Virus record (IMG/VR): IMGVR_UViG_3300037606_000123
Coordinates: 32,001-96,000 of that record
Direction: 5' to 3' (one strand)
From: a virus
DNA: 64,000 nt
Shown: in pieces, positions 12,959 to 33,571 of the stretch
How the letters are laid out: every line of letters begins with the position of its first letter
How positions within the stretch are numbered: the stretch's first letter is position 1
The notes under the pieces: generated by a model
Told to the model about the DNA's origin: nothing
What the model saw: the letters and a program-made list of their open reading frames with translations, nothing else
Database searches by the model: none
Program-made: the position numbers and the translations under genes

Positions 12959-13145
12959 AATGCAAATATAATAATAATAAATTAAAAAATAGCAAAATTT
13001 GGTAATATTCTTGTACTACCATATTTCAAAACACATATCTCAAATTTTTGTAGCATGTGTATTACTTTTTATTTATATAGAAATAAAAAACCGACTAAAA
13101 TACGTTTAGCCGGTTTATCTATGAATGTTAAAACATTCGTGCCAC

Positions 13146-13540
13146 GGTGGAGGTGGAGGGATTCGAACCCCCGTTTTTATAAGAAAATTCATTATTTTCT
13201 ACATGTTTATTTATCTTATTCACAAGATAACAAAATATTTATTTTTTGTTATAACAAACATTTTATTCAATTTTAAAGTTTGAATAAAAAACAACTTTTT
13301 GTTTACTGATTGGTTAATCCTTTCGGATCGACTTAAGCTGTTGCTAATTCAAAAGCTGTCTCAGTTACTACAGCTGTAGAAGAAACTTCTACTGAACCAC
13401 CTAAGTCAGAAACTAATTTGTTAAAAGAAGTTTCGTTTTTAAAGTTTGCATTTATTTTTTAGTACTTTATTTAAGTGTATTTACAAAAACACTACATGCT
13501 TATATTGATCATACATTACAAATCAAATCCAAACACCCCC
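13146..13540 (-). ncRNA. ssrA: tmRNA; tag ORF 13449-13333 encodes ANFKNETSFNKLVSDLGGSVEVSSTAVVTETAFELATA
   Basis: 5' GGGGGTG pairs with 3' CACCTCC-A with G3.U70; T-arm GGGGG-TTCGAAT-CCCTC; resume context ATAAAT-GCA. Confidence 0.9.
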
Positions 13541-30892: not shown

Positions 30893-31648
30893 ATGATAAC
30901 AAATATTAATGAGTTTAAAGTATACTTAAATGAAAATGTTGATATGTCAACATTTTCAATCATACAAAGAAGTGATGGAATAATATCTAAATATGGTCAA
31001 GAAAATAATTTAGATATAGATGATTGTATTGAAAATTTAATATATTATAATATTATATCTGATAATTATACAGAAGACGAATTACGTATATTATTAAATA
31101 ATTTAAAATTAAATCAAACACACACATTTGGTTCTAGATGGACACAAACAGAAGTCACAAAAACACATTCTAATGATACATTATTAGAAAATGTACGTAT
31201 TCCACAAGAAGTTGAATTAAAGTTTGGTGTGAAGTATAAAAACATCAATTGGAATGATTTAAATCTTATTAATGTTGGTGTCTATGGTGATACTGTATTT
31301 TACGGTATTCAAATACCAGGGGAGAATAATAAATACAATAAAGGAATTATTGTTGATCTTAAAAATGAAGATGAATTAAATCGTATTGATATAATGATGG
31401 ATTTTAATTTACAAGGTTTAGGATTAGGATATAAAATTTATAAAAAAATTATAGAACAAACTGGACACATTTATTCATTATTTAATAAAAGAGTTAATGA
31501 TGATGCTATTCCTAAAATTTGGGAAAAATTAAAAAACGATTCTGATATTGAAGTACATTCAAACAAAGATGGTGAAATAGCAATTTGGAAAAACATGAAT
31601 GATAATGAATTAAAAAATAATTTAATTTCTAAAATAAATAACAAATAA
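30893..31648 (+). CDS. Putative internal head protein with GNAT-like segment
   Basis: N-terminal MITNINEFKVYLNE; LQGLGLGYKIY. Confidence 0.65.
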   Translation: MITNINEFKVYLNENVDMSTFSIIQRSDGIISKYGQENNLDIDDCIENLIYYNIISDNYTEDELRILLNNLKLNQTHTFGSRWTQTEVTKTHSNDTLLENVRIPQEVELKFGVKYKNINWNDLNLINVGVYGDTVFYGIQIPGENNKYNKGIIVDLKNEDELNRIDIMMDFNLQGLGLGYKIYKKIIEQTGHIYSLFNKRVNDDAIPKIWEKLKNDSDIEVHSNKDGEIAIWKNMNDNELKNNLISKINNK

Positions 31649-31733
31649 TTTTTATATTAAATTAATTATTAATATCTTTGTAAAGAATTTAATAAAGGAG
31701 TAAACTTTTTTAATATATAACAATATAATAAAC

Positions 31734-31811
31734 ATGAAAAGAATTTTAAACATACAAGCAGTTATAGGTCAAGCCGGGAGAAATCTACCGACTCAGAATT
31801 TGTATTGTTAA
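31734..31811 (+). promoter_or_regulatory. Leader peptide MKRILNIQAVIGQAGRNLPTQNLYC (25 aa), putative attenuator
   Basis: Read manually; GACTCAG (31790-31796) is complementary to the terminator 5' arm CTGAGTC (31840-31846). Confidence 0.75.
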
Positions 31812-31834
31812 TTTTTAAATATTTAACTACTACT

Positions 31835-31867
31835 AAAACCTGAGTCAATTTGATTCAGGTTTTTTTT
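31835..31867 (+). terminator. Attenuator terminator before tRNA-Gly/Ile/Ala
   Basis: AAAACCTGAGTC-AATTT-GATTCAGGTTTT plus further T, 9 nt before tRNA-Gly. Confidence 0.85.
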
Positions 31868-31876
31868 ATTTATAAT

Positions 31877-31947
31877 GCAAGATATAGCTTAATGATAAAG
31901 CGCCACACTTCCAATGTGGAGACGGAGTTTGATTCTCATATTTTGCT
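31877..31947 (+). tRNA. trnG: tRNA-Gly(TCC), atypical acceptor/T stems
   Basis: CCACA-CTTCCAA-TGTGG anticodon arm; GCAAGATA/TATTTTGC can form 8 bp; weak T-stem. Confidence 0.75.
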
Positions 31948-31961
31948 CTAAATTATAATAT

Positions 31962-32033
31962 GCACCATTAATTCAATGGTAGAGTAAATGTCTTATATAC
32001 ATTCGGTCATAGGTTCGATTCCTATATGGTGCA
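31962..32033 (+). tRNA. trnI: tRNA-Ile(TAT)
   Basis: GCACCAT/ATGGTGC acceptor, AATGT-CTTATAT-ACATT, ATAGG-TTCGATT-CCTAT. Confidence 0.9.
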
Positions 32034-32049
32034 CAAATAAAAAAATAAC

Positions 32050-32122
32050 GGGTTGATGTTGAAGATGGCTATCATAACGGTTTTGCAAATCGTTGTCCTG
32101 GGTTCAAGTCCCAGTCGATCCA
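32050..32122 (+). tRNA. trnA: tRNA-Ala(TGC)
   Basis: ACGGT-TTTGCAA-ATCGT; G3.U70 in GGGTTGA/TCGATCC. Confidence 0.88.
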
Positions 32123-32170
32123 AAATGTTTTTATTATTTAATATATAATAAAAACAAATATAAATTAAAC

Positions 32171-32563
32171 ATGAATCAAAGATATTTTAAAATAACAGCA
32201 AATGATGTAAATGACGCAAAACAATTAAAAACAATATTACTAACAAAAAAGTTTTATCCAGAAACAACATCAACACCACCATTACCAGCAACAGTAACTG
32301 GAGGGTTTGATTACAGAAAATTGTTTCTTGTTATAGAAATTCAAAATGATGGTATTATTGTATTGACTAGATCAGAATATACTGTTGCACAATTTAATGT
32401 AAATGTAATACCAACATTAGATTGGACAACAAGATATAATTTATCTTTAGCACCAACAATTACATCATTACCAGAATATACAGAATATCGTAATGGTAAA
32501 AATACAACAACTTCAATACATGCGTTTTTAAACTATGATTACACTTTAACAAATAATAAATAA
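32171..32563 (+). CDS. Hypothetical protein (start revised to MNQRYF)
   Basis: The track start overlaps tRNA-Ala; ATG at 32171 has an A-rich context. Confidence 0.65.
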   Translation: MNQRYFKITANDVNDAKQLKTILLTKKFYPETTSTPPLPATVTGGFDYRKLFLVIEIQNDGIIVLTRSEYTVAQFNVNVIPTLDWTTRYNLSLAPTITSLPEYTEYRNGKNTTTSIHAFLNYDYTLTNNK

Positions 32564-32568
32564 TTAAA

Positions 32569-32625
32569 ATGAAAAAAACAAATAAATACCAGCAAAATAA
32601 CTTACAACAATTATATAATTGTTGA
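32569..32625 (+). promoter_or_regulatory. Gln-rich leader peptide MKKTNKYQQNNLQQLYNC (18 aa), putative attenuator
   Basis: CAG CAA..CAA CAA codons; TTGACAGA (32622-32629) is complementary to TCTGTTAA (32658-32665). Confidence 0.82.
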
Positions 32626-32652
32626 CAGAAATTGTATTATTAAAATTTTTAC

Positions 32653-32686
32653 AAAAGTCTGTTAATATTAATTAACAGACTTTTTT
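32653..32686 (+). terminator. Attenuator terminator directly before tRNA-Gln
   Basis: AAAAGTCTGTTAAT-ATTA-ATTAACAGACTTTTTT. Confidence 0.88.
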
Positions 32687-32688
32687 AT

Positions 32689-32760
32689 TGTCCTATAGTG
32701 AAATTGGCATCACACGTCCCTTTGAAGGATGTATTTCAGGTTCGAATCCTGATTGGACAA
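32689..32760 (+). tRNA. trnQ: tRNA-Gln(TTG)
   Basis: TGTCCTA/TTGGACA, CGTCC-CTTTGAA-GGATG, TCAGG-TTCGAAT-CCTGA. Confidence 0.92.
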
Positions 32761-32784
32761 CAACAAAAACACTAAAACACTAAA

Positions 32785-33081
32785 ATGAAATTAATTAAAA
32801 CAAATAAAAATAATAATTTATATGAAATTGTATATTATTATATTCTAAGAAAAAATATTTATATTTTTACAGATAAACCAAATGATTTAATGATAATGCG
32901 AAAACATAAAGTAAGTTGTAATTATGATGAATTATCTTCATTATATACATTAACTAGTTTTGATAGTAGTAATAATTTAATAATCATAGACACAAATTTA
33001 ATTGATGCTATAGATAGATATAAAGAAGCATTTAGATTATCATTAAGTATTAAAAATATTTATAGTATAAAAACACAATAA
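32785..33081 (+). CDS. Hypothetical protein
   Basis: Intact ORF after tRNA-Gln. Confidence 0.55.
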   Translation: MKLIKTNKNNNLYEIVYYYILRKNIYIFTDKPNDLMIMRKHKVSCNYDELSSLYTLTSFDSSNNLIIIDTNLIDAIDRYKEAFRLSLSIKNIYSIKTQ

Positions 33082-33133
33082 TTTTTTATTATTCATATTA
33101 TAACCATATTATTGTATAAATAAAAAAATTATT

Positions 33134-33571
33134 ATGTTTGAATCAGAAATGTTTAAAAGTATATTAAAAAATATACCTAATATTATTGCAGAAGAAATAA
33201 AAAAAATAGATATTGAAGTTGAATTAAATAAATTAAAAGATTTATATAATTCAACAACAAAAGAAACTTCGAAAGAAGAACCAAAAGAAACATCTAAAAC
33301 AGAAGAAAAAACAAATGTAATTGTTACTGAACCTGATGATTTAGGTAAATATGAAATTATATGTGAAATGCCTGGTATTTCTAAAAAAAATATAAGTGTT
33401 CAATTGAATAAAGGTGTTTTAAGTATTGATGCAGAACAAAACATTAAAAAATTCAATTATGAATTTATTGTTAATGATAATAAAATTTTACATGTTGAAT
33501 TAAAATTAGGTATTTTAACAATTAAACTTCAAGAAATGTGTGCTACAATTGTTAATGTTGTAATTAATTAA
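33134..33571 (+). CDS. Small heat-shock protein (Hsp20-like)
   Basis: EMPGISKKNISVQL..GVLSI and LKLGILTIKL. Confidence 0.7.
   Translation: MFESEMFKSILKNIPNIIAEEIKKIDIEVELNKLKDLYNSTTKETSKEEPKETSKTEEKTNVIVTEPDDLGKYEIICEMPGISKKNISVQLNKGVLSIDAEQNIKKFNYEFIVNDNKILHVELKLGILTIKLQEMCATIVNVVIN

Follow-up and report, generated by a model that had tools for sequence, protein, structure and literature searches.

The stretch of DNA analysed here (the window) comprises 64,000 nucleotides (nt), positions 32,001 to 96,000 of the IMG/VR virus record IMGVR_UViG_3300037606_000123, and the element under study is a glutamine-rich leader unit that stands directly in front of a tRNA-Gln(UUG) gene. The whole analysis is computational, and all features are on the plus strand unless stated otherwise. 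On the upstream side is an open reading frame (ORF) of 130 amino acids (aa), function unassigned (32171..32563), whose stop codon is 5 nt before the ATG of the leader. Then follow the leader ORF (32569..32625), the 5′ strand of a candidate antiterminator, which spans the leader stop codon (32620..32629), an intrinsic terminator (32653..32684) and the tRNA gene (32689..32761). This anatomy is established, and its arrangement is that of a transcription attenuator in which the tRNA would be the gated gene.

The leader ORF, MKKTNKYQQNNLQQLYNC, starts at ATG 32569 and has 18 codons before a TGA at 32623-32625. Its four Gln codons are arranged in two pairs, CAG CAA at 32590-32595 (codons 8-9) and CAA CAA at 32605-32610 (codons 13-14), just as an earlier note on this DNA had described. 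The start is plausible, because the context of the ATG resembles that of genuine gene starts: it is at the 98.5th percentile of the ATGs of the genome, and at the median of gene starts. At the phage Gln frequency of 2.9%, the probability of finding four or more Gln in 17 codons is 1.2e-3. A nonstandard genetic code in which TGA is a sense codon, so that the leader would be read through, was considered and rejected: TGA terminates 18 of the 127 long ORFs (the others end in TAA, 105, or TAG, 4), and coding coverage is barely altered. The standard code fits this stop usage.

The terminator (segments 3 and 4) has a 14-base-pair (bp) stem, an ATTA loop and a folding energy of -14.4 kcal/mol, with a T-tract at 32681-32689. 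The tRNA behind it is called as tRNA-Gln(UUG) by ARAGORN and has a score of 59.5 bits in Rfam, which agrees with the earlier note, where the unit was placed directly 5′ of this gene. The 14-bp stem given there also stands, but the spacing does not: the gap between stem and tRNA is 4 nt rather than 2 nt, and the T-tract reaches base 1 of the tRNA. In the 1.7 kb from 31500 to 33200, two terminator-like sites were found compared to 0.1 expected from shuffled sequences, and each is immediately 5′ of a tRNA gene. Across the whole 123-kb record, a terminator 15 nt or less upstream occurs only at both plus-strand tRNA units.

A promoter scan found no usable promoter between the terminator and tRNA-Gln, and therefore the tRNA would be made only by readthrough of the hairpin. 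Two promoter readings in this region were rejected. The sequence TTGACA at 32622-32627, read as a sigma-70 -35 box, has no -10 box at 16-18 nt, and it also fails on conservation, in that two relatives described below (G003 and L251) read GAATGG at this position, matching their own terminators. A promoter within the terminator (TTAACA...TATAGT) was rejected because the start would fall inside the tRNA.

The antiterminator 5′ strand (segment 2) is TGTTGACAGA, and pairs with 32658-32667. It had been proposed in the earlier note that TTGACAGA, over the stop codon, pairs with TCTGTTAA in the terminator stem. These two sequences (32622-32629 and 32658-32665) prove to be the core of a longer helix: in folding, 32620-32629 pairs with 32658-32667 over 10 bp, two of them G-U. 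The 5′ arm of the terminator (32653-32666) is common to the terminator and the antiterminator. The cognate pairing in the window has an energy of -9.3 kcal/mol, compared to a mean of -1.8 kcal/mol for non-cognate pairings, and ranks first of 11. A further hairpin, between segments 1 and 2 (32605..32624), which the earlier note did not contain, is predicted in both the minimum free energy and the centroid folds: its 5′ strand, CAACAATT, holds the final pair of Gln codons, its 3′ strand is AATTGTTG, and the loop is ATAT. The design CAACAA(U)/(A)UUGUUG of this predicted hairpin is found in most of the orthologous units.

These orthologous units were found by way of the 130-aa ORF, which has 35 homologs. 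Ten contigs were fetched among them, and in nine of the ten the Gln unit is directly 3′ of the ORF, as it also is in G003, where the ORF is 48% identical to that of the window. This gives 11 orthologous units, namely the window, G003/L089, L242-L249 and L251. The leaders in the nine contigs include MKNLNTYQQQQQQYNNC, MKKLNTYKQQQQQLYDC, MTLMSTYQQLQQQQFSD, MINNNTYQNILTQQQQYHC and MKNINTNQNQLQQQQFHC, and in all nine the terminator is 20-32 nt past the leader stop and is followed by tRNA-Gln(UUG). The orthologous leaders are intact ORFs with 3-7 Gln in 17-26 codons, and each of the 11 units has, near the end of the ORF and in most cases spanning its stop codon, a segment that pairs with the terminator 5′ arm. 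Conservation of the unit is therefore established. In most relatives the leader ATG is 3-13 nt after the upstream stop, which implies that the Gln unit acts inside an operon. The genes 3′ of tRNA-Gln vary among the relatives, and therefore the tRNA is the constant partner of the leader.

The tenth contig, L250 (an 85-kb contig of ENA ERZ27301260), is the exception. Here the 130-aa ORF is followed only by a terminator, and there is neither tRNA-Gln nor Gln leader behind it. The tRNA-Gln of this contig sits in the first tRNA cluster, and the first leader has QQ, reading ...LVQGAGAQQAVG.... This exception fits the attenuator model.

Other Gln units came from different searches. A blastn search of phage records identified LR745206, a 635-kb uncultured phage, which has 75% identity from the stop codon region through the tRNA. 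Its tRNA-Gln(UUG) unit has the leader MTTTQQIQQQQINQTD, with the stop codon within GATTGAC, and a terminator of other sequence. Pattern scans of IMG/VR and metagenomes, keyed on the DNA pattern at the terminator/tRNA junction, identified a Gln unit in L096 with the leader MTTFTQYQQQQQINQTD, a unit in L228 with a tRNA-Gln(CUG) and a leader containing MSVQVQQNNQNNQ, and L087/G003, a syntenic relative of the window, with the leader MKNNNTYQNILSQQYNIAEWN. The units of LR745206, L096 and L228 are independent cases. Most of the other tRNA-Gln genes found by pattern are inside arrays and have no leader of their own. Searches of IMG/VR with the flanking proteins gave nearly nothing, namely one unrelated context free of tRNA genes, and G003 again.

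Within the 11 orthologous leaders, Gln accounts for 54 of 206 codons (26%), compared to 2.6-2.9% in genes. CAG is over-used, making up 18 of the 54 Gln codons (33%), as against 7% in the window genome and 13% in the ORFs of the relatives (odds ratio 6, p = 2e-7). It is extremely unlikely that this richness in Gln reflects the function of a micro-peptide rather than a sensor. The recurrence of MK...N..YQ and of a C-terminal Cys in the relatives would suit a functional peptide, but apart from the Gln run both length and sequence vary freely, and the recurrent Cys before the stop (TGT TGA) is explained by the RNA, in which UUGUUG pairs with CAACAA and is part of segment 2. The Gln leaders of LR745206 and L228, which are unrelated, have only the Gln run and the position in common.

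Covariation was assessed for both helices. The terminator stems differ widely in sequence among the units, and are always paired. In a four-sequence alignment (A1), pairing is complete (100% of cells), and 6 of the 13 base pairs have changed in both strands; terminator pairs were counted on A1 and per sequence, the 3′ arm being out of register in the 11-sequence MAFFT alignment (A4). In A4, 86% of the antiterminator cells are paired, and there is a compensatory change in 5 of the 10 pairs. The antiterminator covariation score is 0.335, which none of 500 shuffles reaches (0.188 for shuffles), while slid controls pair in only 19-49% of cells. The changes can be followed directly in the leader-end segment and the terminator 5′ arm, which read TTGACAGA and TCTGTTAA in the window, TTAACGG and CCGTTAA in L243, TTGAATGG and CCGTTCAA in L246 and L247, GAATGG and CCATTC in L251 and G003, and GTGGATTT and AAATCCAC in L244. 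Cognate leader ends and terminator arms pair better than permuted partners (p about 5e-6). It is concluded that the covariation is established.

These results bear on the suggestion that the hairpin is an ordinary terminator of the upstream ORF or operon, with a small ORF that is fortuitous or untranslated, and with tRNA-Gln made by constitutive, leaky readthrough. There are about 20 convincing terminators of similar form (A-tract, hairpin and T-tract) in the 123 kb, the region is AT- and CAA-rich, and the window antiterminator taken alone is only modestly above chance, all of which would suit such an explanation. We nevertheless regard it as distinctly improbable. Three features were required together: an ORF opened by ATG, 12 or more codons long, with its end 15-35 nt 5′ of the hairpin; four or more Gln codons; and an antiterminator duplex whose energy is -9 kcal/mol or lower. 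When the leader-plus-spacer sequence (91 nt) was shuffled with preservation of dinucleotides, none of 20,000 shuffles had all three. The ORF is intact, Gln-rich and correctly spaced in 11 units, in which the flanking protein is about 45-60% identical; the antiterminator covaries; and there is no leader where no tRNA-Gln follows.

The effect of a translating ribosome was modelled by masking the nucleotides from -15 to +12 relative to the A site, assumed to be its footprint. For the window, the RNA folded in this way ended at the terminator loop, where the 3′ arm has not yet been made. When the ribosome masks a Gln codon the 10-bp antiterminator is predicted to form, with a total folding energy of -10.6 to -11.6 kcal/mol, while with the ribosome at the stop codon the only structure left has -0.5 kcal/mol. 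The predictions are consistent across the relatives. All 11 units have at least one Gln codon at which a stalled ribosome permits a fold of -7 to -16 kcal/mol, with 8-12 nt of the 5′ arm tied up in it; with the ribosome at the stop, the structure that remains has only 0 to -2.6 kcal/mol. The earlier note had suggested that a ribosome at the stop codon masks the antiterminator and that stalling at Gln codons permits readthrough, and the masked folding of all 11 units is in line with this suggestion.

Each prediction that a ribosome-mediated attenuator makes at the level of sequence holds in the window and in its relatives. Taking sequence and folding models together, we consider it likely that the unit is a transcription attenuator of the trp/his/phe type, built of four segments and controlled by the ribosome; it would gate tRNA-Gln(UUG), and the tRNA made would act back on the sensor. 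Translation of the leader, coupling of transcription and translation in the host, and regulated readthrough are inferred. RNA polymerase would arrive from upstream, perhaps from a promoter-like box at 31673, having transcribed the first group of tRNAs and then the 130-aa ORF, and a ribosome would initiate on the 18-codon leader. When Gln-tRNA(Gln) is plentiful, the ribosome would reach the TGA and cover segment 2 (32620-32629). The terminator (32653-32684) could then form, and the transcript would end in the T-tract, at base 1 of the tRNA. When CAG and CAA are decoded slowly, the ribosome would stall at codons 8-9 or 13-14, so melting the 1:2 hairpin and leaving segment 2 free. Free segment 2 would pair with the terminator 5′ arm before the 3′ arm is transcribed, which would allow readthrough, and the tRNA would be made. 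The tRNA-Gln produced would quicken decoding of the sensor codons, giving a negative feedback loop.

Several observations weigh against this mechanism. In the absence of a ribosome, the window RNA still folds a shortened antiterminator beside the 1:2 hairpin. The terminator is thermodynamically stronger than the antiterminator, and therefore the switch must be kinetic; the trp attenuator likewise has the stronger terminator and is a kinetic switch. The antiterminator of L228 is located far within the ORF, and a ribosome at the stop codon leaves it uncovered, from which it follows that the simple stop-masking layout is not universal. As the Gln unit lacks its own promoter, polymerase must come from 0.9 kb or more upstream. 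The window antiterminator is short and AU-rich, and its 10 bp with two G-U pairs give p = 0.026 against shuffles when considered alone; its weight comes from the covariation in the relatives, and not from the helix alone. The antiterminator of the LR745206 unit is no better than shuffles (p = 0.45). Finally, the 11 orthologous units are mutually related, and counts across them are not independent events.

The window contains a second plus-strand unit, in the same operon and upstream of the 130-aa ORF. A multivalent leader ORF, MKRILNIQAVIGQAGRNLPTQNLYC (31734..31811), is 5′ of genes for tRNA-Gly(UCC), tRNA-Ile(UAU) and tRNA-Ala(UGC) (31877..32122; ARAGORN and Rfam), and also has three Gln codons. 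Its terminator (31835..31863) ends 14 nt before tRNA-Gly. The antiterminator, GACTCAG/CTGAGTC, has -12.2 kcal/mol for the cognate pairing and ranks first of 18. Homologs of this first leader in G003, L242-L251 and LR745206 follow their own tRNA sets.

The same relationship is seen more widely. In G001, G002, LR745206 and G003, nearly every tRNA block has a leader/terminator unit, and the leaders track the tRNAs behind them. A leader with an H/F/W motif is followed by tRNAs for His, Phe and Trp, one with K by Lys, one with S/R by Arg and Ser, one with E/Y by Glu and Tyr, and one with PQPQDQD by Gln, Pro and Asp. For LR745206, the true assignment of eight leaders to eight tRNA sets is the single best of the 40,320 permutations. 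Over 18 units from five genomes, cognate antiterminators are better than non-cognate ones, with p of 1e-5 or less. We tentatively suggest, while thinking it somewhat less probable than the contrary, that large phages of Bacteroidota-type hosts have a monitor of tRNA supply for each amino acid, with a codon-matched stall sensor for each tRNA gene or block. Such a monitor would allow the phage to detect failing decoding capacity and to turn on exactly the matching tRNAs, whether the failure came from a mismatch in codon usage, from host anticodon nucleases or from other defences that target tRNA. The over-used rare CAG in the Gln sensors would then tune their sensitivity.

The ORFs that follow tRNA-Gln, from 32785 onward, include those of an Hsp20-like protein and of an RNase T-like exonuclease. 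Up to 33200, the terminator scan shows no site separating them from the tRNA, and they would therefore be co-regulated with it. This raises the alternative that the attenuator is real but has a nutritional role, sensing glutamine or the charging of Gln-tRNA and gating the whole downstream transcript, with the tRNA as a passenger. A leader-peptide sensor alone cannot, indeed, tell low tRNA from low charging. We consider a nutritional role unlikely, given that the genes 3′ of the tRNA differ among the relatives, while tRNA-Gln behind the terminator is constant. Also, L250, which has no downstream tRNA-Gln, has no leader either, and across phages the leader codons track the set of tRNAs behind them.

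If gating of the tRNA by its own leader is correct, phage tRNAs would be regulated and made on demand rather than constitutively, and the product would relieve the stall that induces it. The reason why phages carry tRNAs is debated, the proposals being codon compensation and escape from defences that target tRNA (PMC10264068, PMC11464382). A sensor that reports slowly read codons would make the purpose of phage tRNAs testable. At about 120 nt, the Gln unit is compact enough for dissection, and is a possible sensor of decoding speed.

The source record is a 123-kb virus sequence in IMG/VR, with an estimated completeness of 31% and about 23% G+C. Its phage proteins include an SbcC-like nuclease, homing endonucleases, a head decoration protein and a primase/helicase-like ATPase, and its RNA genes are a transfer-messenger RNA (tmRNA) and at least 11 tRNAs. 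The genes have no Shine-Dalgarno sequences, and there are TAnnTTTG boxes 5′ of the tRNA operons. We take the TAnnTTTG box to be the Bacteroidota-type -7 element, a promoter call that draws on established knowledge of Bacteroidota promoters. On the basis of these boxes and the absence of Shine-Dalgarno sequences, the host is probably of Bacteroidota type. The candidate operon promoter is TAtcTTTG at 31673..31680; on a reading of the sequence, no other promoter-like element lies closer to the Gln unit on its upstream side. A box of this kind (tatctttgta or tatatttgta) is also found 5′ of tRNA leaders in G001, G002, LR745206, G003 and L242-L251.

In the promoter-bearing tRNA units there is a further conserved motif, AATATATAA(C/G)AA, located 3′ of the TAnnTTTG box and about 8-15 nt 5′ of the leader ATG. 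It lies within 31700-31733 of the window and occurs also in L026, L027, L033, L089 and L096. Its role may be that of a second promoter, specific to the phage, or it may belong to the 5′ untranslated region. The 130-aa ORF is always placed between the Val/Gly/Ile/Ala tRNA group and the Gln attenuator, and searches of Pfam, PHROG and Atlas gave no lead to its function. In L027, L090 and L246, endonuclease ORFs of HNH or DUF559 type are inserted among the tRNA genes of the clusters.

Other RNA genes and a third leader-like ORF are on the minus strand of the window. A group I intron at 1028-1236, within about 960-1261, matches Rfam RF00028 with 71.9 bits, above the gathering score, and was detected in a local scan, having been missed by the gathering scan of the whole window. 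It splits a tRNA whose exons resemble tRNA-Leu(UAA). The leader-like ORF, MKNINKILTLTISMCTILLCTKKTMG, at 1676-1815, has a hairpin ATTGGAC/GTCCAAT followed by a T-tract. This unit is less clean, in that a TAtaTTTG promoter-like box and an ORF of about 70-80 aa intervene before the intron-bearing tRNA. The tmRNA at 13145-13540 (Rfam 73.2 bits), for which ARAGORN gives the tag peptide ETAFELATA before a stop, is in the same genome as the leaders. A DUF805 RNA motif (RF03081, 70.8 bits) at 53-121 adjoins the minus-strand tRNA cluster, and there are two tRNA-like genes, one of 123 nt with an insertion at 605-727 (40.8 bits) and one at 815-903 (32.3 bits), to which ARAGORN assigns no anticodon.

The unit can be compared with several known systems. 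Among the closest in design are the amino-acid leaders, where a short translated ORF has a run of codons for one amino acid, and the ribosome chooses between terminator and antiterminator within four RNA segments, as described for pheL (PMC3082878) and the his leader (PMC4046918). The Gln unit resembles trpL, hisL, pheL and leuL of E. coli and Salmonella in its codon run, in its 1:2, 2:3 and 3:4 pairings and in its intrinsic terminator. It differs in that the gated gene is a tRNA and not a biosynthetic enzyme, so that the product would feed back directly on the sensor. It also differs in being encoded by a phage, within an operon, 5 nt after another ORF and with no promoter of its own. The Rfam leader families (His_leader, Trp_leader, Leu_leader, Thr_leader and others) gave no match in 31600-32800, with E values up to 5.

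Attenuators are also known for synthetase genes, namely pheST in gamma-proteobacteria and trpS and leuS in Streptomyces (PMC1262725). These are similar in that leader-peptide attenuation controls a translation component for the same amino acid. In those cases, unlike the Gln unit, the gated gene is that of the charging enzyme and not of the tRNA.

T-box riboswitches bind uncharged tRNA directly, and do not need translation. The likeness is that antitermination responds to the state of a single tRNA species, and the genes it regulates serve the amino acid of that tRNA. A translation-independent switch of this kind, with an antiterminator stabilised by the binding of uncharged tRNA-Gln, or of a protein, to the RNA that contains CAA, has some appeal, in that T-boxes regulate translation-related genes by antitermination and the unit does have alternative hairpins. 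It is however a very improbable explanation here. The specifier loop and the T-box sequence are not present, there is no match to a T-box in Rfam at the gathering score or to any Rfam family at E values up to 5, and an element of about 120 nt is too small for a T-box. Rather than occupying a specifier loop, the Gln codons are part of a stem and are in frame with the ATG of the leader, and the position of the stop relative to segment 2 is conserved, which is sensible only if the ORF is translated.

In full-text literature searches, no account came up of tRNA genes, whether cellular or of phages, being controlled by leader-peptide attenuation. Classical leader-peptide attenuation is the textbook mechanism for amino-acid operons; in its application to a tRNA gene, the kind of target is probably new. 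The nearest case of inducible tRNAs in print is the stress-induced trn array of Anabaena sp. PCC 7120, whose accessory tRNAs are reported to be silent by default and induced when translation is impaired (PMC8421152, PMC10272220). Its control is attributed there to a transcriptional repressor, TrcR (PMC10272220). The two systems would thus differ in that a repressor controls the Anabaena trn operon, whereas a codon-specific leader peptide and a terminator would control the phage tRNA.

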